Source: a virus
Taxonomy: Duplodnaviria; Caudoviricetes
Length of the DNA stretch: 55,651 bases
IMG/VR virus record: IMGVR_UViG_3300027749_000134
Location: 1-55,651 of that record
Direction: 5' to 3' (one strand)
A model generated the notes under the pieces. It searched no databases, had not been told where the DNA came from, and saw only the letters and a program-made list of their open reading frames with translations. The translations under genes and the position numbers were made by a program. Positions within the stretch are counted from its first letter, which is position 1. Each line of letters opens with the position of its first letter. Of this stretch, positions 4,628-38,029 are shown piece by piece.

Positions 4628-4948
4628 TTATTTTAGGATACTTAATAATGTATCGCCATGTGCTGTAATCCATCCTAATGCTGCTATTGCGCCTGCACTA
4701 AGATAAACCCATTTTGTTTTGAACTGCTCAAGGTCTTTGATCTTACCTGCTAATTCACTGTGCTGATCAATATTGGCCTTATGCATTACTTCCAGTTGAT
4801 CCATAATGCTATCACGAGTTTTATCTAGACAGTTATGCATTTCTTTGACATCTACTTTAAGATCATCGATCTTTTCTTCAATGTTATCAACTTTTGTTTC
4901 TAATACGCTAACACGTTCTGGAACGGTTGCTAATGCCGATGTGGCCAT
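4628..4948 (-). CDS. Coiled-coil protein with C-terminal transmembrane helix (holin/XhlA-like candidate)
   Basis: Heptad coiled coil ERVSVLETKVDNIEEKIDDL followed by hydrophobic KWVYLSAGAIAALGWI. AAGGAG SD upstream. Confidence 0.5.
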   Translation of the reverse strand: MATSALATVPERVSVLETKVDNIEEKIDDLKVDVKEMHNCLDKTRDSIMDQLEVMHKANIDQHSELAGKIKDLEQFKTKWVYLSAGAIAALGWITAHGDTLLSILK

Positions 4949-20755: not shown

Positions 20756-23700
20756 TTACCTGTTAGATAATTTTATTGGTGGTACAAATACCTGTGATGT
20801 ATAACGTGCTACACCTTTGGTTAAACGTACATCTTCCATGTATCCTTGGAAATAGTTAGGAGTGGCAGTACTTGTATTTAGATTACCAACAGCCACTGAT
20901 GGGAATGTATAATTATACGTATCTGTTTGTGTACTAACAACAAAAATACCATTGATAAACACACTAGTAACTGCATTCTGTCTTGCCACTGCAATATGTG
21001 TCCAAGTAGATGTGCTAATACTTAAACTTGTACTTGCAGTAGAAGTAGCCACTGTAGCATTAAAATATGAAAGTCTATCAGAATTGTATCTTAAACTTCC
21101 GCCGGCGCCAGCGCCACCGTGATCTAACAAATATGTCAAACTAGTATTCCATGTTGAACTTGTTGGATATATCCACATTTCCCAGGTAAAATCATTTGAT
21201 CCATATACGAACGATGTACTACTTGTAGCAATTAAAACATCAGAACTTCCATTGAAACTTAGACTATACTGATTATATTTCGTTGTTAGATTAGAAATAG
21301 TATATGTAGTTGTATTATTTGTTCTAATTGTAGTATTACCTGAATAATCAACTGCCTTGCTGTCGGTGAAGTTTAACAACAAGTTAGTAGGATTACCAGA
21401 ATACAATGCTAATGGTATCTGTGATGGATTAAAGGTACTATTGTATAGTGCAGTTCCTTTGATAATTCTAAAGTTAGACATATAACCATACAAGTATTCA
21501 TTGTATGTTGGAGCCGTTGTATACTGTACTGCTCCTATAGTCAATGGCGAGACAGTATCTACTACGGTAGCCACTGTGGAATATACACATACTCCATTGA
21601 GATATATATTGACAGCAGTACCATCATAAACATAGGCAATATGATTCCATACATTAGGCGGTACAATTGTAGTAGATATATATTGTGTACCATTATAAAA
21701 TGCTATATAACCAGTAGTTATAGCAAGATATCCTTCGTAGGAAGTATCAGCTGCACCGCTGGTATTTCTCTTAGCAAATAAAGCATTATAATTAGTATAA
21801 TTTCCAGGATGATTTAACCATAACTCAATGGTCCATGGTCCACCAGCAATATTCAATGAAGTTGTGTTAGGGAATATCATAACACTCTTGCCATTAAAAT
21901 ATCCACTTAGATTATTTGTAGAGAATGGTGAATATACCGTTGTCTTAGGTGCACCACCGGCTACTAAAGTGCTAGAATATTTTGAGTTATCCTTAACATA
22001 TTCATCCTGCAATGTTAACAATGATGTTTTGATAGCAGTTGTTGCTGGGAACGTTACCGTATTTGTTAATGTACCTACGTTCGATGTAGGAACACCAATA
22101 AATGATCCAAGGTAAAGTGCAGCATCTTTTACAACTCTAAGATTACTCATGTATCCGTTGAAGTTTTCAGAAGTATTTAAAACTCCACCTATAAAGAAGT
22201 TTTCATTGCTATCTGATATAATTGCTGATGTTAGATTACTAACAGATGATGTAGTGATAGCACTAAATGCATTAACTGTATCAGTTATAATGGTTCCTGT
22301 GCGTGTGTCATTATAAGTATCTTTAATGTAGTAAACATAAATCTTATAATTTGTACCTGCAAGCAATGCAATTGTTTCAGATTCTTGAGCAACATTGTTT
22401 ACATCGTCTATGGATATAGTTAAATTATTTCCAATTTTAATAGCATGAAGTCTAAAATTATTAGATGCAATAGCAGGATTAATAGCGTAATAAATTAAAC
22501 GTCTAGCTATAGGTAAATTATATGTTGCATACCACGCCCATTCAGCTGCCTGTGTGTATACCATGGTACTAAGATTAATATATCCCATGCCCAAATAACC
22601 AGTAGCTAATCCAATTCCATTAAATCCAATACTAAATTCAAAATCACTGGCATTAGTTGCACCAAATATATATGTAGATGATGTAATAGTAGTTGGATTA
22701 TTGGTCAATACTAATTGTGTAACTGGTGATCCAACAACCTGTGTTGTGGTCAATGTAGTAAACGAAGAAGTTGTAAAAATACGATTTCCATTTACATACA
22801 TACTTAATTGATGATAATCACGAAGAGTATTATATGTATAAGCAACATGATTCCATGTACCAGTGGTCAATGCAGTGGTAGAAACTTGAAAATTTTGATT
22901 AGATCCATCATAGGTAGTAAATGCTAGATAACCATTACTTGCATTTAGATATCCCTGATACGAAGTTGATGTATTTGAAGGAAGGATTGTTCCAAATGGT
23001 GATAGTACCGAAATAGTAGGAGAATTGACTAATGTTATTGATGCAGTATTATAACTATGATCAACTACCGTTGTTTCTGTCCCTATAAAGTTTGCAGTCA
23101 ATAATACCGTTGATGATGTTTCGTATACATATCCAGTGTAGATATATGTAGCATTAGTTGCCACTGATACAGGAGTAGTTGCAGTATTAGCTATACTTAG
23201 ATTATTTGTACTATTATCTACAATAATATTAGATTGTGCAGTTAATAACTGTACATAACTTGCTGTAGTAATTGCAGCAGTACCTGTACTACTAATTTGT
23301 AAATTTTCAAAAGGTGCAGTCTGTGGTGTAAATGATGATTGATACAATGCTTGTCCACTAACTATACGAAGATTAGATACATATCCTTTTAGATAGGTAG
23401 AAGTGGTACCATTATTATAATAATTATAATATCCAATATAACCAATATTGTTAGGATTTGAAAAATTCCAATCATTTGCGCCTGCTGTAAATGCAACTAA
23501 AATACCATTTTTAAACAATGAAAGTTCGTTGCCATTTCTAACCATGGCAATGTGTGTCCAAGTAATTAGAGGAACTCCTGCACCTGCGCCAACTATTAAA
23601 TTAGTAGTCCATGTGCCAGCAGCATCACTATTAACGCTCAGTGAATTAATATCTTGTCCAAGATTTAAATACCATCCTGTGGCATTATAACCATAAAACC

Positions 23701-26700
23701 CAGTAGGTGTTCCATAGGTAAATTGTAAAGGTTTTCTAAATTGCCCACTGGTGTTTGGTCCACCACTAGCACTAGTACCACTGGCAAATATAAATGACAA
23801 GGCACCTGTTCCGGCAATATTAAATCCACCGCCTTGTCCAAGAGGCGCAAGTGATGAATATACTAGTGTATTAGGATTAGCGATTGTATTAGGTGTTGTG
23901 CTTGAATCTGTTATATATGTGCCAGAAGATGCTACTTTGAGCAATAGTGAAGTATAGCTTGCAGTTGATATGGCTCTTATACCTGATAGTACACCAAACG
24001 GATTTAAAACACTATATGTAGCTGGAGAACTACTATTTGTAATACCAGTTATTACACCACTGCTATCTGTTAATATTGATCCACTATCACTGGCCAACAA
24101 TAATAATTTTGTATTATTAACAGTAGTTAATGGTGAAGTAGGTACACTGCCTGTGAAAGGACCTGTATAATATCCAGTGCCGACTATTAATCTAATATTG
24201 GTAAGATAACCTGTAAAATATGCCAGCCATCCACCAATATAACGTATCTGTGTAAAATTAACAGTGTTAGAAACGCTGCCGTTGAACGCTCCATTTAAGT
24301 ATATAGTCAAAGTTCCAGATATTCTCACCACTGCTACATGAGTCCATGCATTAAGAGTAAGGGCATTAGTACTACCTAAATAATCAGTAGTACTATAGTT
24401 TGTTACATGTATTCTATTGCCATCACTTTGTGTTTCAATACTCAAACCGCCACCTACTCCACTGGTTATGAACTTGGTAAAGTTTGCCATATTTGCAGTA
24501 GGGTAAATCCAAAACTCAATGGTGAAATCACTGGTACCAACTGCTAATCGACTGTCTACAGGCAAGATTATGGAGTTGGCGCCGCCTGCAAATGATAAAC
24601 TACCACTTGTGTTTGTCAGAGCGCCAGATTGAGTGGTATTTAATGCACTTGTAGGTATGGTAAAGTTGCCAACATAAACTGCTACTCCCTTTACAATACG
24701 TAGATTTGTTACATATCCATTTTGATAATAGGTATTGTATGCACCCATGGTAAGTGCATACGAAACAGAAGACTGCGGAGTTCCGATAATTGCTGTTGTA
24801 GTTTGTGCAACACCATTTACAAACAATGTAATACCACCCGAAGTCTTGGTCATAGCAATATGAGACCAATAGTTAAGAGGTACCGTATTTGTAGAAACTA
24901 CACTTTGTCCTCCGGCAGTTCCTTCATAGTAATAAAAACGAATTTGTCCTGTGGCGCTACCAATACCAAATGACCAATAATTTGTAGCAGCATTGAAGGC
25001 CATATTACCAACAGTGGTTGGTGGGGAATTAGTGGTAGCAGAATACCAACCAGTATACGTAGTTGGATATATCCAACATTCAATGGTATAATCAACTCCA
25101 GATGTATACCAATCAAACAATGCAGTTGAATAAGCTGTTGTTAGATACTGATTCGTACCATTAAAATACAAACTACCACCACTAATTCCAGTACTTGCTG
25201 GCAATCCAGGATATCCCCCAAGTGTATGCCATACTCCATTTTTACCAATCCACTGTTTATTTGTAGTTGGATTATATGCTACATTTATTACATCACCTAT
25301 TACATATGCACCTAACGCACCGGGTTGTAGATTATCATTAATATAGATATTGCCATCGTAGAGATAAATTCCAGAATAATTAGCACTACCAGAAACACTG
25401 GCTCTGGCCAAGCCAATTACAATTCCTTTATTTCCTGTTGTTGCAGTTATAGCTATTTCTAAATAGTAATTCTTATCTTCCAACAATGCTGTGGTTCTTG
25501 CACCACCAGAGGAAGATTGTATACCTATTGTAAAGGCACCAAACTGCCAAGTACCTGTGCCACCAGCTGACATCAATGAATAATCAGTTCCACTATCTTC
25601 CCAGCCCCAGTTTGGTGTTGAACTGCTTGTGTGTGAATAAGTAGAACTAGCTACTGGTACATAGTTAGGGCTAAGAGGAGTTGCTGTTCCAAACAGCACA
25701 CTAGCAGTAGTCGAATACCCAGACAAGTATACCCAAGCTTCAACTGTAAAATTAGTACCAGTTGAGAAACTAAAGGACGATGTTGATATCTGCAAATATT
25801 GACTGCTTGTGGTAATATTAAAAGCAGCACTATAGGTAGGATAGAATAATGTTGGATTAATAGTGGTACTAACAGTGGCTGTATTAACATTTATTGGCAG
25901 AGCTCTAGTGCTATAATCTGCGATAAGATTATATTGTGCTGTTAATAAAGATACATTGCTGGCGGTGGTGATAGCAAGAATATTTGTTCCACTATTTTGT
26001 GTGGTCTGCAACATCTGTGACGGTGCTGTAAAGTTGCCTGTGTATATTGCTTGTCCTCGAACAATACGAAGATTACTCAAATACCCTTTATAATTAGTAT
26101 TTCCATAAAATCCACTTGCTCCTATATTCAATGTTTCTGCAACACCACCGTCTATAGTTGATATATTATTCGTTGTACTTGATAATGTTCCGTCAACATA
26201 TAGATTAAATGTTGAGCTACTTCTAACAATAGCCATATGATGCCAAGAACCATCATTCAAATTAGTAGCAGTTGAAATTAAGTCTGTTCCTGTGTTATTT
26301 TTGCTATTAAAACTTAAACTACCTGTTAAATTTTGTTCATTGGATCCATTAAATGTAATCATCCATGAATTAGTTGATGCGGTATATGTAGTACCAGTTC
26401 CGTTGCCCATGATTTTTGAATTAGAAGTTGAAGTTGAATTCATCCAAAATTCAATGGTGAAATTATTACTACCCAAGGCTTGAACAGAACTAGTTGATAA
26501 CGATATTGGAGAATTATTAAAATTTATACTACCGCTAGCAGGCAAAGCAACCTGACGATATTTAGTCAATGGTGCTGTGGGTACTGTAAAGTTACTGGTA
26601 TAAAGTGCTACGCCGTTCATTGCACGAACATTAGATATATATCCTGCAAACTTATATCCAGTTTTTTGTCCACCTATGTAAGTATTGCCTATTGATAAAT

Positions 26701-29700
26701 CATAAGTTGATGAATTTACCTGTGTAAGACCAGCTTGGATACCATTGACAAACATTCGCATATTTGTACCACTTCTAGATACAGCAAGATGTTGCCATAC
26801 ATTATTAAGTCTTCCGGCACCCACGGCATAATCCCAACCGCTGCCGCTACCACCCCAACCCCAAGAGTTAGCAGTTGAACTATAACCCATGAAGAATCCA
26901 ACACCATTAATACCGCCACTGTATGGACTATTAGTGCTATATAAAACAGTAGTAGTATTAGTTATTGTAAAACTTGATGTACTTGTATCAGTTATATATG
27001 TTGCAGAGCTTGCTACATTTAATAATAATATTGTAGTGTTGCTGGCTACATTGGTAGAACTATTGGTACTTTGAGTTAATCCTAATGGAGTAGTGGGTAC
27101 TATAAAGTTGCTGGTGTATACTGCTTGACCGTTGACTACTCTAAAATTAGTTATATAACCATTATAGTAACCTGTATAAGATCCAGCTGTACCAGATTGA
27201 TTTTGACCACCTATATTATACCAAACACTGGTATCATTGACAACTGCGATGGCTCCAACATGTGACGACAAATCAACAGTTAGTGTTTCTCCTACTCCAT
27301 TAATATAGATTGTAATAGCTGTAGTACCAACACAGACAAATGCTATATGAGTCCATATACCTTTAGGCACAGATGCAGTGGTATAAACAACACTTGCGGC
27401 ACTGACACTAGTTGTGTAGGTAAAAGAGAATTTATCATAATTATTAATCCCTAATGCAAATCTACCGTTTACAGCCGATGCTACCCAATTTCCAAATATG
27501 TTATATTTGTCATAGGTATATCCTACATCTCCAGCACCTGATGCAATGTAATAGGTCCAAAATTCAATGGTCTTAGATCCAGTTCCTAGATTTCCAAAAG
27601 CATTGAAAAAACTAACTGAATTAGCAATTTTTAAATACTGACTTGTACCATTAAAACTCAAACTACCACCAATACCACTTGCTGATATAATTAAATTATC
27701 TGTAGACTGAGCAACAGTTGGATATACCCATGCTTCTACCGTAAAATCACTTTGACCAAAATTCAATGATGAAGTAGGAAGGGCTGTCAAGTATTGTGAA
27801 CTACCATCAAATTTTACACTGGCATTAAATATTGGACCCAGTGTTGTGCCGGCAACTATGTTAAAATTTGATATAAGAGTTCCAGCGGTATAACTTCTAT
27901 CAACAATGATATTTGATAGACCGTCAAATTGTCCAATAATTAATACGGTACCAGTGGTAATTGCATTGGTGTTAAATCCACCAAATGGATTACTAGATTG
28001 TGTGATAGTTAACGATTCATTGGGTACTGTGAAATTACCTGAATACACGGCTGTACCATTGACTATACGGAAATTAGCTATGTAGCCATTCATTAGATAA
28101 GTGGTGCTGTAATATCCACCTATGGCTAAATTTGTTGTATAGTTATAGTTAGTAGTATCATTGGTTGCAACAACATATCCAACTCCATTAACATATAGAG
28201 TCAATACCGTTGAACTACGAACCAATGCTACATGGTTCCAATTATTAGTAGACATTGGGCTAACTGCCAAATCTAAATATGTACCTGCAGTACCGTAGTA
28301 TATGCGCCAGCCGCTAGTAATAGATGCCAATGCAAGACCACTAATAGTTGCAGGTAATGTAGTTGCGGCTAAATGCCAAACACCATTATTAGTACCGCCT
28401 GCAATATAATTAACCCAACATTCAATGGTAAAATCACCAGTACCAAATTTAAATGCAGTGGAGTTAACCACAGCCAAATATTGATTAGTACCATTAAATG
28501 ACAAGGCATTGAATGAGCCTGCATTACGTTTTGCAAATAATACATTATTATTGGCGTAATTTCCATTGGGATTTACCCAGGCTTCTACAGTCCACTCTGT
28601 ACTGGTTGAAAAATTAAATCCGTCAAAATTAGCTGCACCAACAAAAGAGCTACCATCAAAATATGTACTATAATTTGTATTGAATGGTGAGAATGCTTGG
28701 AATGATGTAGCTGTGGTTGAGTTTGTAATTGCAAATGAATTAATTGATCTATCAATAAATGTAGTTTCGGTGCTTAATAATGTTAGTAGCACAGTATTAG
28801 TAATTGTAGATATATCACTCATAGGTGGAGTAAAACTTGTGATATATTTTGCTGTACCTTTTACTAGATGTAAATTACTGATATATCCATTAAATGTAGT
28901 TGCAGCATTACCATTAATATCTGAACCTATAGCAACTTTTATTGTATTATTAATAGTATTACCAGAACCACTAATTGTATAATTAATAAACGATGGTAAA
29001 GATGCATTATAATATGTTGCACCAGTATTACTCATAGTTGAGAGACCAGTTGTATCAACTATTTTATTGGCATCACTATTAACTAATAATAATAATTTAG
29101 TACCACTAACATTTGATGTTGCATCTAATATATTTGAAGAAGTTAATGGATTAAATGAACTTGTATATAAAGCAGTACCTGCAACAAATCTTACTCCAGT
29201 TATATAACCAACAAATGGATAAGATGCTGTATCTGTATATCTTCTACCCAAGGCAATTATTGTGGTACTAAGACTTATATTATTTGAATTACTTGCACTA
29301 CCTTGCAATATACCATTTCTAAAAAGTCTTACAGTACCAGATTGATTTGACAATGCCACATGAGTCCATGTATCAGTTACGAAAGTACTCAACCAAGGCA
29401 CAAGGGTGTTGGGACCACTTCCATTAGCAGGAATTAAGCCTCCACCTGCATCACGGGTTATCGCAAATCCTGAGGCCGCGCTGCTAACGCTGGCTAAAAA
29501 TGATGCATAATTAGCATCAGATCCTGTACTATTTAAATATACCCAACATTCTACAGTGAAATCACCAAGACCAACAGCAAACTCACCATTAGTAGCCGAT
29601 ACATTATTACCAGAAGTGATACTCAATGCACCTGCCGCTGACACTATTACTGGAGTTAATGTTGCGCCGGCAGGAGTACCAGATCCGTTTATCTGTCCAT

Positions 29701-32700
29701 TGATATAGAATGTAGTTAGCGCATTATATCTCACACATGCCACATGTGACCATTGATTCAATGGAACCGCGGCAGTTGAAAACAATCCTGTGCCTGCTCC
29801 AATTTGAAAATATAATAATCCACTGGGATAAATCATCCATACCCAATCAGTGGTAACAAGATAACTAATTGGTCCTACAATCACAGATCCATATACTGTA
29901 TTACGTGTTGTTGGATATATCCATGCTTCCATGGTAAAGTCACCGGTGCCAAAGGCAAACGAATTAGAAGAAGGTAAGGTCAAATAATTATATTGACTAT
30001 TGAAGTATGCACTACCACTACCACCAAATGGGGTGTATGGAGCAACCACAGTAGCAGTGGTAACATTTGCTGTCAATAATCTTACAAAATTAGAATTAGT
30101 TGAATTATCAATTAAATTATTTTGTAGAGTTATTAACTGTGTATTTGAACTTGTAGTTAATGCTGTTGTTGGAACAGTGGTAGTTGCATTATTGTAAATT
30201 GACCGACCAACTAATATACGAACACTGGAAATATAACCATAGAATGTTTGATTGCTAGCAGTGACAGGACTATTTAAAAATAATGTTTGTATTATAAATG
30301 CTGTGGTATTTGGGTATGCTATGCCCACCATATATCCATTGATATACATGGCAATGGTAGAACCATTTCTAACCAATGAAATATGATTCCAAGTATTTAA
30401 AAATACAGATCTAGTTGAAGTTATTAAATCAGTACCACCTGTGGCTTGGAATCTAAGTGTTCCATTAGCCGCAAGATATAAAACAGGTACATTAGCAGTG
30501 GCACCACCGTTGGTTCGCCAATCAAGTATAATGCCACCCGATGAGTTATATAATGTTGGGTAGATCCAGCATTCAACGGTAAAGTCTCCGCTGCCCAATG
30601 CTGATGTAGCTGCTGTTCCAAAATTTAAGTTTTGACTACCAGCAGTAGAAGTACTAAAATATACACTGCCACCAACCATGGATTTATTGTATTCACCGGG
30701 TATTTTATAAGGTGTGAATTTAGTTATAGTTGGAGAACTGTTTAAAGTTCCAGTGGTAATATATTGATTATAAACACTGTCGTCTACATGATTATTGTTT
30801 GCTGCAATTAATAAACTTGTATTATCAATTCTTGCCAATGGTGAGCTAGATGGTGTAAAATTACCAGTATAAAGTGCTGTGCCATTTACCATTCTAAAGT
30901 TAGATAGATAGCCAGGATACATGCTGGTTATAGCAGAACCAGCTGTGCCTATAAGCATACTTGCTGTGCTATTGTAGGGAGTAATAATTTGTGAAGGAGG
31001 AATTGCAGTTAAGAATCTTGTACTAGTATTAAATGTAATAGCGTTGGTATTTGTTCCACTCCAGGGATTTGTTGGTTGCTGTGTGGTTAACACTCCGGTG
31101 GGTGGTACAAAGTTTGTTCCAGTATAAACTGCCACACCGCTGACTATTCTAAAGTTGCTGATATAACCTGTTAGATAAGTTGATGTGGCTGTACTAAATC
31201 CCATGTAACCAAGACGTAGAGTATTCTGTTCTGTATAACTGGTAATTATTGTTGATGAAGTTCTAACACCATTTACATACATTGACGCAGTAGTACCTAG
31301 TCTTGAGAATGCCACGTGATTCCAAGTGTTCAGTGTAAATAATTGTGTTGGTAAAGATGAAACACCTAGTAATAATGATATATAACTTGCAGTTAATACA
31401 GCCTGTGTATTAACACCTCCAAATTGGGTTGAAATTGATAGACTAATTGGAGGAGTAAAGGTACCGGTATATACTGCTAAACCTTTAACTATGCGTATAT
31501 TGTTAATATAACCTGGGAAGAACCAAGTTGGGCTTGATGCATCATTGTTAGCACCAATAAACAATGGATCGGTACTGGCTATAATAGTTGAAGCAGCTAC
31601 TGTTGCAACTTGAATTCCGTTAAGATATAGATAAAAATTAGCACCATTTCTTGTCCATGCTACATGATTCCAGGTGTTTAAACTAATAGTTCCACCACTC
31701 AACCCAGAAGCATTCAATGTTACAGCAACAGCGCCGCCAGTAGTAGTATAAAGAATCCAGGCTCTACCTGGAGCAGCATGATATAAAGCAAGTAAGGTTA
31801 AAGATGTAGCACCGAATGATGTTTGATAAAACCAACATTCAACAGTAAGGTCTCCTGAACCAAATGCAAATGCTGCATTATTTGCCACAGATACATAATT
31901 ACTGGTACCATTGAAACTCAAACTACCAGAAGAACCATAATAATTGCTAGGATTTAATGTTGTACCATTATTTGTTGGTGTAAACCCAATGCCGCCTTGA
32001 TCAGTAAGAAGTTGTGCAAGGCTAGGTGATGGAGATGAAGTAAAAGAAGTTGAAACAAACGTTGTCACCGCACCAGAAGATCTATATCCTAGTGTCATGT
32101 AATAGTTGTTTATACTCCATTCCCACCCAGTAGTGCCAACACCGTCGTATGTTCCAGCTATCAACATACTAGAATAAGTTAAGGTATTTAAATTAACCCA
32201 AGCCTCAACGGTGTGATCACCATAGGTCAACCAACCAGTAGATGATGTTGCGCTTAATGAACTATTACCATTAAAATATAAACTACGTAAAATAGTAGTA
32301 AATGGATTTAATGTACTTAGACTAACTGTGCCTGAACCTATGGTTATCGCAGAAGTGTTGGTACTATAATCCACTATGTTAGTAGTGTACGGTAATAATG
32401 TTAATAACGATGTGTAAGTACCAGTGGATATTGCCTGTACATTACTACCTCCGTAGGGATTGGCAGTTTGTGTAATGGTTAATGGTTGACTGGGTCTAGT
32501 GAAGGCGCCGGTATATACTGCTAAACCTTTAACGATACGTAAGCTAGAAATATAACCGTTAAAAAAACTTGTCAATGCTGCGCCGCCGGAATAAGATGCA
32601 GCTATTTGTTGGGCACTAGCAACATATGTATTAGCATCTGTGTAGGTACTACCTGTTTGTGTTCCATTCAAATACAACTTAGTTGATCCACTTAAACGAA

Positions 32701-35700
32701 CCAATGCCACATGATACCAAGTGTTTATAGACAACGCTGAACCGGTAATTCTTATTACACTATTTGTATAGTAAGCAATAGTTCCTGTAGTTTGAGTTAT
32801 ATACAATGTAGGATAAAGTCCCTCTGTGCTTGCTAGTCTACCGTCAATTAGCAACATATTAGCAGCACCATTAATTGCTGTAACATATATCCACATTTCA
32901 ATAGTAAAATCAGTACCACTTGCATAACCAAATGCTGCATTGGATGGTACAGTTAATGATTGACTTGTACCATTAAAGTACATACTACCACCCCATACTG
33001 TAGGGTCGCTAGTAGTTGGAAAGGGGGAGAATGGCTGTATGCTTGGGGTACCGTTAACTGTTAGTGCAAAGGCATTAGTACTATTATCAACAAATATATT
33101 ACTTTGGCAAGTTAGTAAACTTGTATTAGTGATTGCAGTTAATGGAGCAGTTGGGGGTGTAAAAGTACTAGTGTAAAGAGCCAATCCGCTTACATATCTT
33201 AAATTACTAATATTTCCAATAAATGGTTGTGAATTAACACCAGTATAATCCATAAATCGACCAATATGAACTGCACTAGGATTGCTACTATTAAATTGAG
33301 ATTGTGTGCCTGATCCTACCTGTACACCATTTACATAAAAAGTTATTGCAGAACTGTTACTAACCACTGCCACGTGCTGCCACGTATCAAAATTAATTAC
33401 TCCTGCAGAACTAGTTACAGAATAATCACCGGAACTAGGACTATAATAAAATGACACATCTCTAGCCGTACTGGTTGCTGCGTTAATATATATAGCCCAA
33501 TCTCTATTTGTAGTTGTTCCTTTGCTTATAATTGTAGCATACGCTATATTAGTACTACTAGGATTTATCCAGCATTCTATAGTGAATGTTCTAACCGTGC
33601 TTGGATTCATTGCAGTTCCAGAAACCGTTAAATCAAGATTATTGCCGCCGGAAGTATAATTACTCCACCCACTTGAACTAATAGGCGGAGCAAGATTAGT
33701 TGCAAAAGTATTACCCACGCTGGTTATATAATTAGGAATAACACTATAATCTACAGCAATACCACCTTCACTGACAATAGGAGAAGATCGGCCTATCAGC
33801 AAACTTGTACCAGCGGTAATAGCTGGTGTATTATTACCATTTTGATTGGCCAATTGTGTGGTAGTTAACTGTGATGATGGTACAGTAAAGTTACTGGTAT
33901 AGATTGCTGTACCTTTAATAATACGTAAATTGGAGATATATCCTGTCCATGGTTCAGCAGGCCACGTGGCATAAACTCCGCTGATTCCAATAATTAATGG
34001 ATTATTACTGGATAAATTAGTGCTTCCTAGCGGAAATGCCTGTGTTGAAGTTGTAACGTCATTCCCATTTAACCATATTTTTCCAGTGGTGCCTGATCTT
34101 GTTGCCGCTATGTGATACCAAGTATTACCAACAATGGTACTTGGTCCACCCCATCCATTTACTGCCCAAGTATCCCACGATGCAAGTCTCCAATAGTTAC
34201 CAATATATTGTAATTCCCATGAAGCATTATTAAAAGGAATTATATTACCTACAATTGCGTGTTGAGCCCCATCAAAAGGAACCGTGCTTGGCCAATACAC
34301 CCAAGCTTCTACGGTAAAATCACCAGTTCCAAACGTCCAAGCACTATTAGCAGGTATTGAAAGGAATGATGTTGATGTACCCCTGAAGTACATACTATTA
34401 AATGTACTAGTTGATGAGATAGGTGGATATAAGTTTGCCGCAGCAACTCCTGTATTTGTTACTACAAAATTATTAGAACTATAATCATCAAAGAAATATC
34501 TACTAGGATTAACAAATCTACCCGTTAATAACTGTGTAGTGTTGGTGAAATTAGCCGACGCCGCAGTAAGTGCGGCATTTTGTATATTAGACAAAGGACT
34601 AGTTGGTACTACAAATAGTGAACCAGAATACAATGCTAGACCTTTGACTATACGTACATTACTGATATAACCGTTGAAGAAATAACCATTCCCAGAAGTC
34701 CATCTACCAATTGATCCTACTAAGGTGTTACTGCCTATTGCCGACGCTGCCGCAGTAGGAGTATTGCCAATTCCATTAATATAAATTGTAATATTTCCTG
34801 CAAGACGTACTACTGCAAGGTGGGCCCAAGCATTTAAAGGTATTGTAGCAGTTGTTGTTATGGTCGACACCAATGAAACACTCGTGGCCCATTGGAAATA
34901 AACAACACCTGAATTGTTTATCCAAAATTGGCACGATCCAATTGTATATGCACCTACAAGACCATTCCAAAAATCTATTATCATGCCGCCCGGGCCGCTT
35001 CCATAGGTTATTGGATATACCCAACTTTCCCAAGTAAAATCACCAGTACCAAAGTTAAATCCAGCGTTGGCCGGTAAATTTAAATAACTTGATCCATTAA
35101 AATATAAACTATGATATTGACTTTGATCATAAGGATCCAGTGAGGAGTATGTTAGATTACTCGGTACAGCAACAGCAGAATTAATACTAGAATCGGAATA
35201 AGCACTTCCATAGGTAAATGCTTGCTCTTGACCATTAACATATACACTGAATTTTAGCCCCGAACGAACAAAGGCAAGATGAGACCATGTACCTGTTGAT
35301 ATAGCTATTGCAGAAGTAATTGCGACACTATTAGTTGCTGTGGTATTGGCCAATGTCAATGTTGGTTTATTTGTCGAAGATAAAGATATACCAAATGGTG
35401 CAACATTGTTGGTATTGAATTGTCCAGCAATATAAGCAGTCCCTGTGTTGGCTGTAAGATATGCCCAGGTTTCTATGGTCCAATCATTACTACCCACTGT
35501 AAAAGCAGGTATATCTGGTACAACCAAATAATCAGTGAGCCCGTTGAAGTATGTACTCCAGTTATTACCAAATGGGCTGAATGTTCCTTGCCCTGGAAAA
35601 TTTGAAGAAACAGCACCTAAATTGTATGCACCATAATCAACAAAATTAGATGGTGCTAGACCATAGGTGGAATATTTAAGAGTTAATAAACTTGTACCAG

Positions 35701-38029
35701 TTGTTATAGCAGAGGTATTATTGCCACCGTAGGGATTTGCCACTTGTGTGGATTGCAATGAACTAGTAGGTGGTGTAAAGTTTCCAGTATATACTACTAC
35801 GCCATTTACTATTCTAAAATTACTTATATAACCATTAAACCGATATTGCACACTTGAGCCCGAAGCAACTGATCCAAATAGACCAATCTGCAAAGTGCCA
35901 CGGGCAGTCCACGGCCCCGAATTTCCACTACCAACTTGAGAACCATTGACAAATAGTGTAGCAGTGACTCCTGATCCTGTGAGTGCTACATGATACCAAG
36001 TAAACAATGACAATGGTATACTGGCGCCCGCACCGCCGTTACCTAGGTTCAAATATTGATAAGACACGCCAATACCAGACGTACTAACAACCCAATTCCA
36101 CGAGTATATAGTACCCGAACCAGGTCCTCCTAATTCACATGCAATTGTCATTGTACCAGTAGCATTTAAATAAATCCATGCTTCCATGGTGTAATTGCTG
36201 GCTAACCAGCTACCCGACGCTTTAGTTAAACTTAGATATTTGCCAGTACCATTAAAATAAACACTTTCATTCAATGTAGATGTAAATGGATTTAATGTAC
36301 TTGCACTAACACCTACATTTGTTATTGAATTTGTTAATGTACTATAATCTGTAATTGATGTACTTGTAGTTGCAAATCTTCCTACCAATGCAGATGTACC
36401 TGATGTAATAGTTGCTACATTTATTGAAGGCGCAAATTGTATTGTACTTAATGGTTCTCTTGGTATCACAAATAAACCTGAATAAACTACAGTTCCATTC
36501 ACCAAACGTAAATTAGATATATATCCATTATAAAAATTACCACTTGATCCAGATTGTCCTATTGTTAGTGCAAATGTAGAATTGGATGTAACACCTACGC
36601 CAAACCCTCGAACAAATGTACCCGAAGGATTACCATTAATATAGAATGCTCCAGTATTTCCTGTATAATTCCATGTAACTGCAATATGCGACCAAACATT
36701 AGAAATTATTGTTCCAGCACTAGTAGCTTGAACAATAAAATTTCCGCCACCGCTGGCAACGGTAAAAGCAATATTTCCACTTGAGGTAATTTGTACACTA
36801 CCACCTACATAATTTGCATTCCCGGCATTGGTACTAAAAATAAAAGGATTAGAAGTTAATAAAGTTGGATAAGCCCAAAACTCTACAGTAACAATGGCTG
36901 CGGTGCTGTGTATAAAATTAAAATTAGTATTAGCACCTATGGTCAGATAACTACTACCGTTAAAATATATACTATGATAAAATCCCGGATCAAATGGATT
37001 GAGAGTAGCAGCAGTGACTCCATCATTAGCCATAGCTAAACCATTTCCACTGAAGTCTGTAAAAATATTATAAGTTAATAAAGAAGAATTACCAGATGTA
37101 CCTGTAGTTGCATTCAACAACAATGCATTATTACGGAAGTATGGATCTGATTGGTTGTCAGGGTATAAATTCTTAGGAATAGCATAGCTTAGTATAACAA
37201 TACCACTACCACCAGCACCACCGACACCAGTAGTTGATCCGCCACCGCCGCCACCACCACCGGAGTATGAAGAACCTGATGCACCAGCAGGTGATGTGGT
37301 AGTTCCGCCTGCGCCGCCACCACCAGTTAAGCTACCATTAGCATATCCAGCGGCATTTGCTCCACCACCGCCACCGCCACCAAAGTATAGTGGAACACCT
37401 GTTATACGTGTAATTGTTCCTGTACCACCACGGCCGGCAGCACCTGAATTAGCCGTGTCACCAACTCCGCCCGAACCGCCACCTGCACCTCCATAAGTGG
37501 TTTGCGATCCACCAGCGCCACCTGCAAAACCCTGACCACTTATTCCAGTGCCACCTGTGCCGGAGCCGGAGCCGCCTCCACCTGAGCTGCCATTGCCACC
37601 ACTACCGTTTAAAGGAGCACCTCCTGGGCCTCCGCCCAGAGCTGTAAGCACAGTTAGACCATTAGTCACTGTAGAACTTTGTCCAACTACATTGGTTGCA
37701 CCGCCGGCACCAATTTGTATTACAAATGAAGTTGTAGTTATTGAAAATGTAGAAGAATTTATAACTCCGCCACCGCCACCACCACCACCTACACCTCCAC
37801 TAACAGCAGGGCCACCACCGCCACCACCTCCGCCTACTACCAATAGTTGTGCAGTGGTAGTGGTAACAAAACTTGGTAAAGTAAATGGGCCTGATGAAGT
37901 GAACAAATGTACAGCATAGTAGGAACTACCTGTAGAATAAAATCCTACAAAGCTACTTCCGTAGGTACCTGTGGTTATTGAAGGAGGTTCTCTTCTTTGT
38001 CTTTTAATTACACCTAAATCGTATGGCAT
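20756..38029 (-). CDS. Giant (5757 aa) tail fibre/adhesin: Gly-rich domain + many LamG/concanavalin A-like modules + SPRY-like module
   Basis: Roughly twenty recurrences of SxxFNG..YL / DFT(V/I)E.W / W.H.A..R / F.GYISN.R.V.G.A.Y in one uninterrupted ORF. Confidence 0.85.
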   Translation of the reverse strand: MPYDLGVIKRQRREPPSITTGTYGSSFVGFYSTGSSYYAVHLFTSSGPFTLPSFVTTTTAQLLVVGGGGGGGGPAVSGGVGGGGGGGGVINSSTFSITTTSFVIQIGAGGATNVVGQSSTVTNGLTVLTALGGGPGGAPLNGSGGNGSSGGGGSGSGTGGTGISGQGFAGGAGGSQTTYGGAGGGSGGVGDTANSGAAGRGGTGTITRITGVPLYFGGGGGGGANAAGYANGSLTGGGGAGGTTTSPAGASGSSYSGGGGGGGGSTTGVGGAGGSGIVILSYAIPKNLYPDNQSDPYFRNNALLLNATTGTSGNSSLLTYNIFTDFSGNGLAMANDGVTAATLNPFDPGFYHSIYFNGSSYLTIGANTNFNFIHSTAAIVTVEFWAYPTLLTSNPFIFSTNAGNANYVGGSVQITSSGNIAFTVASGGGNFIVQATSAGTIISNVWSHIAVTWNYTGNTGAFYINGNPSGTFVRGFGVGVTSNSTFALTIGQSGSSGNFYNGYISNLRLVNGTVVYSGLFVIPREPLSTIQFAPSINVATITSGTSALVGRFATTSTSITDYSTLTNSITNVGVSASTLNPFTSTLNESVYFNGTGKYLSLTKASGSWLASNYTMEAWIYLNATGTMTIACELGGPGSGTIYSWNWVVSTSGIGVSYQYLNLGNGGAGASIPLSLFTWYHVALTGSGVTATLFVNGSQVGSGNSGPWTARGTLQIGLFGSVASGSSVQYRFNGYISNFRIVNGVVVYTGNFTPPTSSLQSTQVANPYGGNNTSAITTGTSLLTLKYSTYGLAPSNFVDYGAYNLGAVSSNFPGQGTFSPFGNNWSTYFNGLTDYLVVPDIPAFTVGSNDWTIETWAYLTANTGTAYIAGQFNTNNVAPFGISLSSTNKPTLTLANTTATNSVAITSAIAISTGTWSHLAFVRSGLKFSVYVNGQEQAFTYGSAYSDSSINSAVAVPSNLTYSSLDPYDQSQYHSLYFNGSSYLNLPANAGFNFGTGDFTWESWVYPITYGSGPGGMIIDFWNGLVGAYTIGSCQFWINNSGVVYFQWATSVSLVSTITTTATIPLNAWAHLAVVRLAGNITIYINGIGNTPTAAASAIGSNTLVGSIGRWTSGNGYFFNGYISNVRIVKGLALYSGSLFVVPTSPLSNIQNAALTAASANFTNTTQLLTGRFVNPSRYFFDDYSSNNFVVTNTGVAAANLYPPISSTSTFNSMYFRGTSTSFLSIPANSAWTFGTGDFTVEAWVYWPSTVPFDGAQHAIVGNIIPFNNASWELQYIGNYWRLASWDTWAVNGWGGPSTIVGNTWYHIAATRSGTTGKIWLNGNDVTTSTQAFPLGSTNLSSNNPLIIGISGVYATWPAEPWTGYISNLRIIKGTAIYTSNFTVPSSQLTTTQLANQNGNNTPAITAGTSLLIGRSSPIVSEGGIAVDYSVIPNYITSVGNTFATNLAPPISSSGWSNYTSGGNNLDLTVSGTAMNPSTVRTFTIECWINPSSTNIAYATIISKGTTTNRDWAIYINAATSTARDVSFYYSPSSGDYSVTSSAGVINFDTWQHVAVVSNSSAITFYVNGVQVGSGTQSQFNSSNPSAVHIGRFMDYTGVNSQPFIGNISNLRYVSGLALYTSTFTPPTAPLTAITNTSLLTCQSNIFVDNSTNAFALTVNGTPSIQPFSPFPTTSDPTVWGGSMYFNGTSQSLTVPSNAAFGYASGTDFTIEMWIYVTAINGAANMLLIDGRLASTEGLYPTLYITQTTGTIAYYTNSVIRITGSALSINTWYHVALVRLSGSTKLYLNGTQTGSTYTDANTYVASAQQIAASYSGGAALTSFFNGYISSLRIVKGLAVYTGAFTRPSQPLTITQTANPYGGSNVQAISTGTYTSLLTLLPYTTNIVDYSTNTSAITIGSGTVSLSTLNPFTTILRSLYFNGNSSLSATSSTGWLTYGDHTVEAWVNLNTLTYSSMLIAGTYDGVGTTGWEWSINNYYMTLGYRSSGAVTTFVSTSFTSSPSPSLAQLLTDQGGIGFTPTNNGTTLNPSNYYGSSGSLSFNGTSNYVSVANNAAFAFGSGDLTVECWFYQTSFGATSLTLLALYHAAPGRAWILYTTTGGAVAVTLNASGLSGGTISLNTWNHVAWTRNGANFYLYLNGIQVATVAASTIIASTDPLFIGANNDASSPTWFFPGYINNIRIVKGLAVYTGTFTPPISLSISTQFGGVNTQAVLTASYISLLLGVSSLPTQLFTLNTWNHVAFSRLGTTASMYVNGVRTSSTIITSYTEQNTLRLGYMGFSTATSTYLTGYISNFRIVSGVAVYTGTNFVPPTGVLTTQQPTNPWSGTNTNAITFNTSTRFLTAIPPSQIITPYNSTASMLIGTAGSAITSMYPGYLSNFRMVNGTALYTGNFTPSSSPLARIDNTSLLIAANNNHVDDSVYNQYITTGTLNSSPTITKFTPYKIPGEYNKSMVGGSVYFSTSTAGSQNLNFGTAATSALGSGDFTVECWIYPTLYNSSGGIILDWRTNGGATANVPVLYLAANGTLRFQATGGTDLITSTRSVFLNTWNHISLVRNGSTIAMYINGYMVGIAYPNTTAFIIQTLFLNSPVTASNQTFYGYISSVRILVGRSIYNNATTTVPTTALTTSSNTQLITLQNNLIDNSTNSNFVRLLTANVTTATVVAPYTPFGGSGSAYFNSQYNYLTLPSSNSFAFGTGDFTMEAWIYPTTRNTVYGSVIVGPISYLVTTDWVWMIYPSGLLYFQIGAGTGLFSTAAVPLNQWSHVACVRYNALTTFYINGQINGSGTPAGATLTPVIVSAAGALSITSGNNVSATNGEFAVGLGDFTVECWVYLNSTGSDANYASFLASVSSAASGFAITRDAGGGLIPANGSGPNTLVPWLSTFVTDTWTHVALSNQSGTVRLFRNGILQGSASNSNNISLSTTIIALGRRYTDTASYPFVGYITGVRFVAGTALYTSSFNPLTSSNILDATSNVSGTKLLLLVNSDANKIVDTTGLSTMSNTGATYYNASLPSFINYTISGSGNTINNTIKVAIGSDINGNAATTFNGYISNLHLVKGTAKYITSFTPPMSDISTITNTVLLTLLSTETTFIDRSINSFAITNSTTATSFQAFSPFNTNYSTYFDGSSFVGAANFDGFNFSTSTEWTVEAWVNPNGNYANNNVLFAKRNAGSFNALSFNGTNQYLAVVNSTAFKFGTGDFTIECWVNYIAGGTNNGVWHLAATTLPATISGLALASITSGWRIYYGTAGTYLDLAVSPMSTNNWNHVALVRSSTVLTLYVNGVGYVVATNDTTNYNYTTNLAIGGYYSTTYLMNGYIANFRIVNGTAVYSGNFTVPNESLTITQSSNPFGGFNTNAITTGTVLIIGQFDGLSNIIVDRSYTAGTLISNFNIVAGTTLGPIFNASVKFDGSSQYLTALPTSSLNFGQSDFTVEAWVYPTVAQSTDNLIISASGIGGSLSFNGTSQYLKIANSVSFFNAFGNLGTGSKTIEFWTYYIASGAGDVGYTYDKYNIFGNWVASAVNGRFALGINNYDKFSFTYTTSVSAASVVYTTASVPKGIWTHIAFVCVGTTAITIYINGVGETLTVDLSSHVGAIAVVNDTSVWYNIGGQNQSGTAGSYTGYYNGYITNFRVVNGQAVYTSNFIVPTTPLGLTQSTNSSTNVASNTTILLLNVASSATYITDTSTSSFTITNTTTVLYSTNSPYSGGINGVGFFMGYSSTANSWGWGGSGSGWDYAVGAGRLNNVWQHLAVSRSGTNMRMFVNGIQAGLTQVNSSTYDLSIGNTYIGGQKTGYKFAGYISNVRAMNGVALYTSNFTVPTAPLTKYRQVALPASGSINFNNSPISLSTSSVQALGSNNFTIEFWMNSTSTSNSKIMGNGTGTTYTASTNSWMITFNGSNEQNLTGSLSFNSKNNTGTDLISTATNLNDGSWHHMAIVRSSSTFNLYVDGTLSSTTNNISTIDGGVAETLNIGASGFYGNTNYKGYLSNLRIVRGQAIYTGNFTAPSQMLQTTQNSGTNILAITTASNVSLLTAQYNLIADYSTRALPINVNTATVSTTINPTLFYPTYSAAFNITTSSQYLQISTSSFSFSTGTNFTVEAWVYLSGYSTTASVLFGTATPLSPNYVPVASSTYSHTSSSTPNWGWEDSGTDYSLMSAGGTGTWQFGAFTIGIQSSSGGARTTALLEDKNYYLEIAITATTGNKGIVIGLARASVSGSANYSGIYLYDGNIYINDNLQPGALGAYVIGDVINVAYNPTTNKQWIGKNGVWHTLGGYPGLPASTGISGGSLYFNGTNQYLTTAYSTALFDWYTSGVDYTIECWIYPTTYTGWYSATTNSPPTTVGNMAFNAATNYWSFGIGSATGQIRFYYYEGTAGGQSVVSTNTVPLNYWSHIAMTKTSGGITLFVNGVAQTTTAIIGTPQSSVSYALTMGAYNTYYQNGYVTNLRIVKGVAVYVGNFTIPTSALNTTQSGALTNTSGSLSFAGGANSIILPVDSRLAVGTSDFTIEFWIYPTANMANFTKFITSGVGGGLSIETQSDGNRIHVTNYSTTDYLGSTNALTLNAWTHVAVVRISGTLTIYLNGAFNGSVSNTVNFTQIRYIGGWLAYFTGYLTNIRLIVGTGYYTGPFTGSVPTSPLTTVNNTKLLLLASDSGSILTDSSGVITGITNSSSPATYSVLNPFGVLSGIRAISTASYTSLLLKVASSGTYITDSSTTPNTIANPNTLVYSSLAPLGQGGGFNIAGTGALSFIFASGTSASGGPNTSGQFRKPLQFTYGTPTGFYGYNATGWYLNLGQDINSLSVNSDAAGTWTTNLIVGAGAGVPLITWTHIAMVRNGNELSLFKNGILVAFTAGANDWNFSNPNNIGYIGYYNYYNNGTTSTYLKGYVSNLRIVSGQALYQSSFTPQTAPFENLQISSTGTAAITTASYVQLLTAQSNIIVDNSTNNLSIANTATTPVSVATNATYIYTGYVYETSSTVLLTANFIGTETTVVDHSYNTASITLVNSPTISVLSPFGTILPSNTSTSYQGYLNASNGYLAFTTYDGSNQNFQVSTTALTTGTWNHVAYTYNTLRDYHQLSMYVNGNRIFTTSSFTTLTTTQVVGSPVTQLVLTNNPTTITSSTYIFGATNASDFEFSIGFNGIGLATGYLGMGYINLSTMVYTQAAEWAWYATYNLPIARRLIYYAINPAIASNNFRLHAIKIGNNLTISIDDVNNVAQESETIALLAGTNYKIYVYYIKDTYNDTRTGTIITDTVNAFSAITTSSVSNLTSAIISDSNENFFIGGVLNTSENFNGYMSNLRVVKDAALYLGSFIGVPTSNVGTLTNTVTFPATTAIKTSLLTLQDEYVKDNSKYSSTLVAGGAPKTTVYSPFSTNNLSGYFNGKSVMIFPNTTSLNIAGGPWTIELWLNHPGNYTNYNALFAKRNTSGAADTSYEGYLAITTGYIAFYNGTQYISTTIVPPNVWNHIAYVYDGTAVNIYLNGVCVYSTVATVVDTVSPLTIGAVQYTTAPTYNEYLYGYMSNFRIIKGTALYNSTFNPSQIPLALYSGNPTNLLLNFTDSKAVDYSGNTTIRTNNTTTYTISNLTTKYNQYSLSFNGSSDVLIATSSTSFVYGSNDFTWEMWIYPTSSTWNTSLTYLLDHGGAGAGGSLRYNSDRLSYFNATVATSTASTSLSISTSTWTHIAVARQNAVTSVFINGIFVVSTQTDTYNYTFPSVAVGNLNTSTATPNYFQGYMEDVRLTKGVARYTSQVFVPPIKLSNR

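Follow-up and report, generated by a model that had tools for sequence, protein, structure and literature searches.

The window analyzed here, by which we mean the whole 55,651-nucleotide stretch of DNA, comes from an uncultured freshwater virus and encodes a giant fiber-like protein of 5,757 residues (P0001) in which LamG domains are split by other domains, some of them split in their turn. Because there are inserts within inserts, the connectivity of the domains is that of a tree and not of a chain. The nest is present at the level of sequence, its splits are conserved, insert-free alleles exist among relatives, and the assembly holds; we consider it very probable that the explanation as a whole, modules inserted into loops of a tree-like giant adhesin, is correct. 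The initial annotation had read five layers in this region (LamG > LamG > SPRY > LamG > LamG). Four of them (LamG A > LamG F > SPRY-like G > LamG H and I) are firmly supported by partial profile matches and by excision; the fifth, which would place I within the tail of H, concerns the terminal strand element alone and is suggested by the bookkeeping of such elements, which is also valid in three orthologs.

P0001 is made up of an N-terminal Gly_rich_2, 22 LamG (Laminin_G_3) modules, 16 of them continuous and six split, one SPRY-like module and one module that we call X. A self-built LamG HMM, trained on 19 intact domains, and the Pfam family Laminin_G_3 (PF13385, ConA-like lectin/glucanase superfamily) independently return the same complementary partial matches, balanced and non-crossing. 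Over both giant frames PF13385 matches in 34 places, 33 of which lie above the gathering cut-off of 27.6 bits (two of them only when combined with neighbors in frame), with the remaining place, 25523-25807, reaching 19.2 bits; the fragment aa 4040-4960 matches the family in 4 stretches (E 7.3e-46). The features that concern domain A and its inserts are as follows.

20756..38029 (-): giant ORF, a single open frame without a stop codon, 5,757 aa
28514..28681 (-): A_N, N-part of LamG A, aa 3117-3172, hmm 5-58
27989..28513 (-): B, complete LamG, first module of A's insert, aa 3173-3347, hmm 4-184, 180 bits
27680..27826 (-): C_N, N-part of LamG C, aa 3402-3450 (LamG HMM, Pfam, rejoining)
27062..27679 (-): D, complete LamG within C, aa 3451-3656 (LamG HMM)
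26558..26884 (-): C_C, C-part of LamG C, aa 3716-3824 (LamG HMM, Pfam, rejoining)
25991..26542 (-): E, complete LamG, aa 3830-4013 (LamG HMM)
25676..25834 (-): F_N, N-part of LamG F, aa 4066-4118 (LamG HMM, Pfam, rejoining, orthologs)
25193..25675 (-): G_N, first part of SPRY-like module G, aa 4119-4279
24626..25189 (-): H, complete LamG core, aa 4281-4468 (LamG HMM, Pfam)
24110..24616 (-): I, complete LamG core, aa 4472-4640 (LamG HMM, Pfam)
23834..24109 (-): a pair of 'LL(L/T)...D.S' strand elements following I, aa 4641-4683 and aa 4684-4732
23687..23833 (-): G_C, second part of SPRY-like module G, aa 4733-4781
23294..23686 (-): F_C, C-part of LamG F, aa 4782-4912 (LamG HMM, Pfam, rejoining, orthologs)
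22967..23293 (-): tail of A's insert, two more LL...D.S elements, aa 4913-5021
22751..22966 (-): A_C1, second of the three pieces of LamG A, aa 5022-5093, hmm 59-129
22244..22750 (-): X, a module of ~170 aa in the second loop of A, aa 5094-5262
22061..22243 (-): A_C2, third piece of LamG A, aa 5263-5323, hmm 122-182
21404..21919 (-): intact sister LamG, aa 5371-5542, basis of the structural model

The eight strings by which the initial annotation had marked where domains break off and resume all lie within a few bases of where it had put them, in one open frame. LamG A is interrupted behind FAKRNAGS at aa 3172 (nt 28516), where B begins directly, and resumes 1,849 residues further on at TSYQGYL, aa 5022 (nt 22966); the intact sister, as had been noted, reads FAKRNTSGAADTSYEGYL contiguously at aa 5417-5444 (about nt 21698-21781). 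The LamG HMM accordingly aligns to A in three pieces, 3117-3170 (hmm 5-58), 5018-5093 (59-129) and 5263-5323 (122-182), to C in two, 3402-3449 (7-54) and 3716-3824 (69-180), and to F in two, 4066-4150 (6-87) and 4779-4912 (58-182). The N-part of F ends with VLFGTATP at aa 4118 (nt 25678), and its C-part begins with NATGWYLNLG at aa 4782 (nt 23686). The SPRY-like module within F is interrupted at aa 4279 (nt 25195) and taken up again at aa 4733 (nt 23833), its halves mapping onto contiguous stretches of the intact copy in the neighboring gene. Further in, the end of TTQSG lies at aa 4469 (nt 24625) and the start of IRAISTASYTSLLL at aa 4684 (nt 23980). E is joined directly to C_C (5-aa gap), and I directly to H (3-aa gap). 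The two strand elements that follow I would close first I and then H; the LL..D.S profile being too insensitive, they were located by regular expression and reading by eye.

Three more split LamGs, d3, d8 and d11, lie upstream, outside the coordinates of the initial annotation, which had also overlooked the splitting of C by D and the second insert (X, aa 5094-5262) in A's C-half.

35141..35566 (-): d3_N, aa 822-963
31070..32296 (-): d8_N (aa 1912-1995), d9 (2030-2203) and d8_C (2226-2320) (LamG HMM, rejoining, orthologs)
30818-30985 (-): d3_C, aa 2349-2404, closing d3
28793..30019 (-): d11_N (aa 2671-2788), d12 (2797-2972) and d11_C (3000-3079) (LamG HMM, rejoining, orthologs)

The insert of d3 spans 1,385 aa and contains d4-d8, so that d9 within d8 is a LamG in a LamG in d3, and d12 sits as a LamG within LamG d11. 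The recursive pattern A1-B1-C-B2-A2 is found where A holds F, F holds G, and G holds H and I; further nestings are d3 with d8 and in it d9, A with C and in it D, and X within A.

In-silico excision of the inserts, the check that had been proposed for the nest, turns each pair of halves into one full-length domain by profile score. Rejoined A scores 84.2 bits as opposed to 25.2, 23.2 and 40.5 for its pieces, and it and the intact sister are reciprocal best paralogs. The other rejoined LamGs reach 136.5 (C), 113.5 (F), 124.2 (d8), 132.2 (d11) and 112.5 bits (d3), and the rejoined SPRY-like module 144.6 bits over profile positions 11-201 of 219. The N-parts and C-parts of the protein, six of each, stand in a balanced, site-matched bracket order, which arises by chance in 2,378 of 1,000,000 random orders.

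The label SPRY, as opposed to the module itself, is weak. PF00622 matches aa 4100-4290 with 19.2 bits (E 0.0014), below its cut-off of 26.3, and the intact copies of the module in P0002 give no SPRY match at E up to 1. A profile search of the PDB returned 0 matches; in the ESM Atlas (score 0.96), 29 of 30 matches fall in viral clusters in which 25-40% of members carry PF00622. We therefore call the module SPRY-like.

The splits recur in relatives. A is split at hmm 53-59 in all nine family members (P0001 and 8 relatives, 28-66% identity), and at locus L010 as well; in three orthologs and in the sister, the place of A's break falls exactly between FAKRN.. and TSYQGYL. Both halves are always kept together, in bracket order, with A_N 54-70% identical across relatives and the LL...D.S elements in the tail of A's insert 38-56% identical in orthologs. 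For C_C, the best match in orthologs is not at the orthologous domain. Insert-free alleles, which the initial annotation had suggested seeking, exist at four split sites, those of d8, d11, F and X in A. The halves of d8 map to P0014 1640-1775 and 1777-1891 with 79-89% identity, those of d11 to P0014 2182-2331 and 2338-2386, and A_C1 and A_C2 to P0014 3398-3461 and 3460-3523; the halves of F map to one intact domain in an ortholog. Module X, for which no Pfam family matched, is shared with P0003 only, and in other proteins occurs free-standing, in series. At least 20 of the 66 giant relatives have one or more such nests, at sites clustering near hmm 60, 80-90 and 130-140, and these counts are lower bounds, since the parser missed the three-piece domain A in P0001 itself. 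A DNA search of phage records gave a sole match of 48 nt.

Structure prediction bears on the nest in two places. The AlphaFold2 model of the intact sister (pLDDT 79.4, pTM 0.75) is a β-sandwich of LamG/pentraxin type whose top Foldseek matches in the PDB are the LamG-like domain of PAPP-A, 4dqa, PTX3 and an agrin LG domain (E 3e-8 to 1e-6, TMq 0.44-0.54). The insertion sites fall between strands, in three loops of this model, and are thus predicted to be loops. Its downstream LL..D.S element is modeled at pLDDT 72-86 and the upstream one at 53-58; in the complex of A, which is without the downstream element, the upstream element touches the domain. An LL..D.S element may thus belong either to the core before it or to the one after it. 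Folded as two chains, A_N and A_C gave ipSAE values of 0.82, 0.81 and 0.79 (best of 3 controls, 0.00), with 340-366 contacts, at least 87% contact agreement between runs and partner pLDDT of at least 75, module X lying outside the predicted interface. In the tool's calibration, which is only rough here because our own alignments were used, 58 of 80 solved complexes attain this ipSAE mark, as do 2 of 110 mismatched pairs. The halves of A are hence predicted to fold together; the result is not partner-specific, and it may stem from the model having learned the LamG fold. For F(G(H,I)) the proposed structural check gave no usable prediction: the single-chain AlphaFold2 model of the inner nest (aa 4020-5021, 7-row alignment) is unusable (pLDDT 40.1, pTM 0.29). 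MAFFT --auto never opened the long gaps, and rows of intact LamGs, SPRY and half-domains collapsed onto H, so that only rows collinear with the query were usable.

That the giant ORF might be a chimera of collapsed or mis-joined LamG repeats, a misassembly that the initial annotation had listed among the refuting outcomes, is exceedingly improbable and is largely refuted by the data. The gene is highly repetitive at the protein level, and a read/contig comparison does list joints; these, however, have sides of only 20-31 nt at the conserved DFT.E.W motif, are flagged as typical cross-matches, and are read as such on account of those short sides. The gene is without long near-identical DNA repeats: identity between copies is 60-88%, over no more than 94 nt. 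In runs X2 and X3, whose year and habitat match the possible source and which may represent one campaign, contigs bridge every junction with 0 mismatches, and a contig of run X5 (2022) bridges 25678. P0003 and seven other relatives, from other contigs, share the same splits.

Nor does it seem at all probable that the halves are decayed leftovers of recombination, serving as linkers only in a string of intact domains, even though the AlphaFold model of the nest is of low confidence and lone pieces score weakly (A_N 25.2 bits, A_C1 23.2 bits). The halves are conserved as well as intact domains or better (d8 79-89%, A_N 54-70%), are always retained jointly in bracket order, and, in the case of A, are predicted to interdigitate through those 340-366 contacts. 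A third reading would have the halves complement one another between the chains of an oligomer, the nest encoding an interlocked multimer by domain swapping. Fiber proteins are often oligomeric, and as the two parts of A were modeled as separate chains, pairing within and between chains would give the same result; single-module inserts and the short connections at their starts (0-8 aa gaps), on the other hand, fit pairing within one chain, and we regard swapping as very improbable.

The reading we favor is loop insertion in a single chain. The gene would encode one giant adhesin or fiber protein of lectin-type LamG β-sandwiches, with whole cassettes placed in frame in one of three surface loops of a host LamG. 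A cassette would consist either of LamG cores (one or several), each closed by a short strand element, or of another β-sandwich (SPRY-like, X), and the host's remaining strands would return hundreds to ~1,850 residues later, completing the sandwich. Inserted domains are themselves hosts (A > F > SPRY-like G > H (> I)), and LamG lends itself to such nesting, the N- and C-terminal ends of its chain being adjacent. Since relatives differ at the same loops in the presence, absence and number of cassettes, the nest may be an evolving way to add, drop and exchange probable binding heads. The initial annotation had the protein growing by in-frame insertion into surface loops: rejoined scores, contiguous alleles in orthologs, the SPRY-like copy and the loop sites support a cassette mechanism by which the protein grows or shrinks in its loops, any one difference being either a gain or a loss. 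As a process the mechanism is one that we infer, and the branched three-dimensional shape would likewise follow from the topology.

A more far-reaching version can be entertained tentatively, the balance of probability, for the whole of it, tipping somewhat against. Each LamG core would need one short 'LL..D.S' hairpin, a cassette having its core first and its hairpin last, and a core directly before another core would have its hairpin postponed until the inner cassette closes. The nest in the window's protein would then run to six or seven layers (A > C-tail or B > ... > F > G > H > I), and the protein would fold into a branching bush of lectin heads whose inserts are ten times as large as their hosts. 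If true, no larger recursive domain nest would have been described in a virus protein, and the bracket grammar would predict architecture from sequence in a wide family of phage and giant-virus fibers.

From its genomic context P0001 is a candidate virion-surface adhesin or fiber protein with a putative binding function. Its neighbors match tail-fiber PHROGs (a collagen-like fiber at 49985-55576; phrog_972, phrog_863), and no Dit family was found among the Pfam families of P0001. A pectate-lyase-like ORF is also present in the window. Searches for NCLDV capsid, T4 capsid, sheath and T4 portal gave no match in the window and four orthologous fragments; on such fragment records two controls were also without any match, so this has no bearing on virus type. 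A T4-type capsid gene was found only in a more distant record, behind L012.

The design is real and varies between relatives, and it extends a known principle of protein architecture. A virion adhesin that grows as a tree, with binding heads in three permissive loops of a lectin fold, would have a plausible route to altered particle binding that leaves the rest of the protein undisturbed. For annotators the lesson is that partial LamG matches in genes of this kind mark the halves of real domains and should not be taken for pseudogene debris, and for protein engineering, the three sites are natural, repeatedly used points of insertion in a common β-sandwich.

Among the closest known systems are tandem LamG arrays in structural proteins of cyanophages and uncultured phages, which share the domain family, the fold and similarly giant genes; they are beads on a string, whereas the present family interrupts its beads. 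By our parser, which may miss nests, 46 of the 66 giants examined are plain arrays. Tandem LamG proteins carry annotations such as 'Concanavalin A-like lectin/glucanases superfamily', 'structural protein' and 'baseplate wedge initiator'. The 'evolved Dit' and other decorated siphophage adhesion proteins, as described in PMC7291167, bear one or two carbohydrate-binding modules in loops of a galectin domain. These too are phage adhesion proteins with modules in loops of a lectin-type domain, but the insertion is single-level and in a conserved baseplate protein; here it is recursive, with host and most inserts of the same family.

The initial annotation knew of no nesting of this depth in phage fibers, and in the literature searched we found no published description of multi-level nesting there; as a property of proteins at large the depth is not new, since PMC13114784 describes a six-level nest in cyanobacterial RNA polymerase. 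In Si3 of the cyanobacterial β' subunit, recursive insertion of SBHM/hybrid motifs builds several domains (SBHM-2 to -5) from distant parts of the chain (PMC10895346 and PMC13114784). There, as here, domains of the same fold lie recursively inside one another and non-nested relatives exist (E. coli Si3). Si3 differs in pairing small SBHMs with an essential enzyme, as against LamGs of ~190 aa in a virion adhesin, and its whole region measures ~640-690 aa, compared with single inserts of 1,849 and 1,385 aa here, where insertion makes use of three loops as well as of the core-tail junction and close relatives differ in content. [quoted passage not shown] P0001 shows its defining pattern, nested A1-B1-C-B2-A2 included, and with inserts up to ~ten times the size of the host contradicts the regularity reported there.

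The region in which the initial annotation had seen LamG and SPRY domains nested inside one another lies entirely within one giant fibre-like open reading frame, P0001, next to a second giant, P0002:
20756..38029, minus strand: P0001, uninterrupted ORF of 5,757 aa holding the whole nested region
38050..47706, minus strand: P0002, ORF of 3,218 aa just upstream of P0001
Both products begin with an N-terminal glycine-rich domain (PF21722), and the bulk of each consists of Laminin_G_3 domains (PF13385). In P0002, which has an N-terminal motif in common with P0001, Gly_rich_2, SPRY-like and LamG modules alternate; an intact counterpart of the SPRY-like module that is split in P0001 is present there.

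The break and resume strings quoted for the nest were all found in P0001, each within a few bases of the position first given. A LamG profile was trained on 19 uninterrupted domains from the two giants and run against P0001, where it returned 16 full-length and 13 partial matches, the partial ones being complementary in profile coordinates. The split LamG domains are as follows, the last three lying upstream of the nested region:
A, minus strand: aa 3117-3170 (profile positions 5-58), 5018-5093 (59-129) and 5263-5323 (122-182)
C, minus strand: aa 3402-3449 (7-54) and 3716-3824 (69-180)
F, minus strand: aa 4066-4150 (6-87) and 4779-4912 (58-182)
d3, minus strand: aa 822-963 (6-147) and 2349-2404 (128-183)
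d8, minus strand: aa 1912-1995 (5-92) and 2226-2320 (89-183)
d11, minus strand: aa 2671-2788 (7-127) and 3000-3079 (108-183)
Pfam's own PF13385 model independently gives the same partial pattern, for example:
28460-28627, minus strand: model positions 9-62
22745-22975, minus strand: model positions 41-113
27650-27808, minus strand: model positions 1-51
26612-26935, minus strand: model positions 39-143
23357-23716, minus strand: model positions 32-142

Were these halves spare parts of neighbouring domains, the cores between them should need them; those cores are complete alone (B and D, profile positions 4-184; H, 4-182; I, 4-183), so the halves are not. When the inferred inserts were removed in silico and the rejoined halves rescored against the profiles, every pair became a single domain spanning the whole LamG profile: A at 84.2 bits (pieces 25.2, 23.2 and 40.5), C at 136.5 (47.5 and 87.7), F at 113.5 (31.4 and 80.3), d8 at 124.2, d11 at 132.2 and d3 at 112.5. 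By the same profile, all nine LamGs of P0002 are continuous. The six N-parts and six C-parts of P0001 follow one another like balanced brackets, with split sites that match; of 1,000,000 random token orders, just 2,378 do so.

For the SPRY layer of the claimed nest (module G), the split stands and the name is weak. Against a profile built from six intact modules, taken from P0002 and two of its relatives, the rejoined G halves reach 144.6 bits (pieces 110.0 and 31.7) and cover positions 11-201 of 219; by BLASTP G_N and G_C correspond to P0002 2630-2746 and 2759-2817, contiguous there and 453 residues apart in P0001. The Pfam SPRY score, by contrast, is 19.2 bits, below the cut-off of 26.3, a profile search of the PDB returned no match, and in the ESM Atlas the module falls within viral clusters where PF00622 is present in 25-40% of members. 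The evidence for SPRY being weak, the module is here termed "SPRY-like".

A search of a large protein collection with aa 3100-5340 recovered 65 giant proteins, P0001 included, and the overall plan of P0001 is common to eight relatives at 28-66% identity (P0003, P0004, P0005, P0011, P0012, P0013, P0014 and P0019). In nine of nine family members, and at the orthologous locus L010, the split in A lies at profile position 53-59 and a complete LamG comes directly after it. When the halves of A are aligned to the intact sister (aa 5371-5542, a paralogue of A) and to three orthologues, the break falls precisely between "..FAKRN.." and "TSYQGYL..". Rejoined A and the sister are each other's best match among the paralogues (38% identity). 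The insert of A in six relatives is four uninterrupted LamGs, and there the C-half of A is continuous; C with D inside it, the SPRY-like nest and the module X are shared, among the relatives, by P0003 alone, which has two further units. Domain d8 is continuous in P0004 and P0014, and d11 is continuous in P0014 and encloses one, two or three LamGs elsewhere. The proposed search for insert-free alleles succeeded in P0014, where halves from P0001 align to contiguous stretches of intact domains:
P0014 1640-1775 and 1777-1891: d8_N and d8_C, 79% and 89% identity
P0014 2182-2331 and 2338-2386: d11_N and d11_C, contiguous
P0014 3398-3461 and 3460-3523: the two C-pieces of A, contiguous and without X
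P0014 3068-3155 and 3193-3327: F_N and F_C, within one intact domain
The misfit is C, whose N-part aligns to the orthologous domain and whose C-part has its best match elsewhere. Each of these differences may be a gain or a loss.

Upstream, d3 (30818-35566, minus strand) encloses a 1,385-aa insert with five LamGs, among them d8, itself split by d9, which makes three layers; this nest lies outside the coordinates of the original observation and is kept in nine of nine family members. A simple parser found at least one matched split LamG around a full LamG in at least 20 of 66 giants (the 65 matches and P0002), and the same pattern in at least one of the 120 mid-size homologues listed; it overlooked the three-piece A, so that these counts are lower bounds. 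Split sites in this survey concentrate around profile positions 60, 80-90 and 130-140.

The third piece of A is set apart by module X:
22244-22750, minus strand: X, aa 5094-5262, about 170 aa inside a loop of A
X matched no Pfam family, and 1.84 billion cluster representatives yielded 10 homologues. In the homologous proteins it is one link in a series, with other modules on either side (two LamGs in P0188, for example), and free-standing copies elsewhere neighbour FN3, collagen, Gly-rich or LamG modules; P0001 and P0003 have it lodged in the loop of A.

Predicted by AlphaFold2 as a single chain, the inner nest gave no confident model (mean pLDDT 40.1); the sole sequence collinear with it was a 93%-identical orthologue, MAFFT having opened no long gaps and the intact relatives being unusable. 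The halves of A were folded as two chains, aa 3072-3172 (73 alignment rows) and aa 5022-5330 (77 rows), giving ipSAE values of 0.82, 0.81 and 0.79; three controls scored 0.00 at best. In calibration, 58 of 80 solved complexes reached the ipSAE mark, as did 2 of 110 mismatched pairs, counts that are approximate for self-made alignments. The models hold 340-366 contacts, at least 87% of them agreeing between runs, with partner pLDDT of at least 75; strands of A_N and C-half residues 1-12, 35-48 and 249-299 form the interface, and X lies outside it. This pass may stem from likeness to solved LamG folds, and halves of paralogues would probably pass too; what the prediction shows is that A's halves are complementary, partner specificity being beyond it.

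AlphaFold2 modelled the sister (aa 5323-5575, 71 rows) with confidence (pLDDT 79.4, pTM 0.75), and the fold matches PDB domains of the LamG and pentraxin types as well as "ConA-like" structural proteins of phages in BFVD. Mapped onto the strands of this model, each insertion site falls in a loop:
Site 1 (A, C, F): hairpin loop that links YNALFAKR with YEGYLAIT
Site 2 (d8): loop preceding the W.H.A strand
Site 3 (d11, X and probably d3): loop leading from the "..Y.NG.." strand pair to "L.IG"

Less clear-cut is the claim's fifth layer, I inside the tail of H. Each of the two is a complete core, with 3 residues between them. LamG cores of these giants have one short "LL(L/T)...D.S" element each; every insert begins with a core (gap 0-8 aa) and ends with an element, and element and core counts are equal within every insert of P0001 aa 3348-5021 and of loci L009, L010 and L011. 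Where cores abut, the missing element turns up at the insert end, one extra per abutting pair: in P0001 two elements follow I and two follow F_C (C_C abuts E), L009 has one abutting pair and two terminal elements, and L010 and L011 each have two pairs and three. The element after the core of the sister is modelled as a hairpin (pLDDT 72-86). This bookkeeping, with one model, supports a placement of I and its own element between the core and the element of H, and suggests that further tail-level nests exist. In the two-chain fold, however, the element before A touches A as well, which makes the assignment ambiguous.

As to a misassembly of repeats, no DNA copy within the P0001 gene exceeds 94 nt, and the copies share 60-88% identity. 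Per-run contigs from sequencing runs X2 and X3 (two other studies) cover 22000-29000 with 0 mismatches and span the junctions at 22966, 23686, 23833, 23980, 24625, 25195, 25678, 27682 and 28516; a 2022 run, X5, spans 25678. X2, X3 and the source may come from one campaign.

The window is a linear viral contig of 55.6 kb. CheckV puts its completeness at 6% and that of orthologous fragments, 39-96 kb in length, at 11-28%, and the implied genome sizes conflict; taking the relatives' fragments at 11-28%, the genome would measure several hundred kilobases. One more distant relative has a T4-type capsid gene in its record; hallmark-gene searches of the window and of four orthologous fragments gave no match. 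The virus may be a jumbo phage or a giant virus. Tail-fibre PHROG matches among adjoining ORFs include a collagen-like fibre of 1,863 aa, and the proximal tail fibre and fibre-assembly families are matched weakly; two nucleases are also nearby, together with:
10102-13473, minus strand: glycosyltransferase/methyltransferase fusion ORF, 1,123 aa, with GT1-type and GT2-type domains and an FkbM-type methyltransferase, in one strand block with the fibre genes
14505-15374 and 48204-49181, minus strand: small Gly_rich_2 ORFs, 289 and 325 aa, of the N-terminal domain type of both giants
2-1033, minus strand: pectate-lyase-like ORF running off the contig end, with a beta-helix (PF12708) and a weak Mtd N-terminal domain match
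The fusion may act in fibre glycosylation or host-surface modification, and the pectate-lyase-like ORF resembles a tailspike in sequence.

The nested-domain observation and its core interpretation hold, and the principle of nested domain insertion is already known. No published account of nested or inserted LamG in phage fibres was found in the mostly open-access main texts searched. [quoted passage not shown] Among phage adhesion proteins, "evolved Dits" are described as carrying one or two carbohydrate-binding modules in galectin-domain loops (PMC7291167). New in P0001 are the recursive nesting of one fold within a virion adhesin, inserts of very large size, the recurrent use of three loops and the variation of cassettes among relatives.
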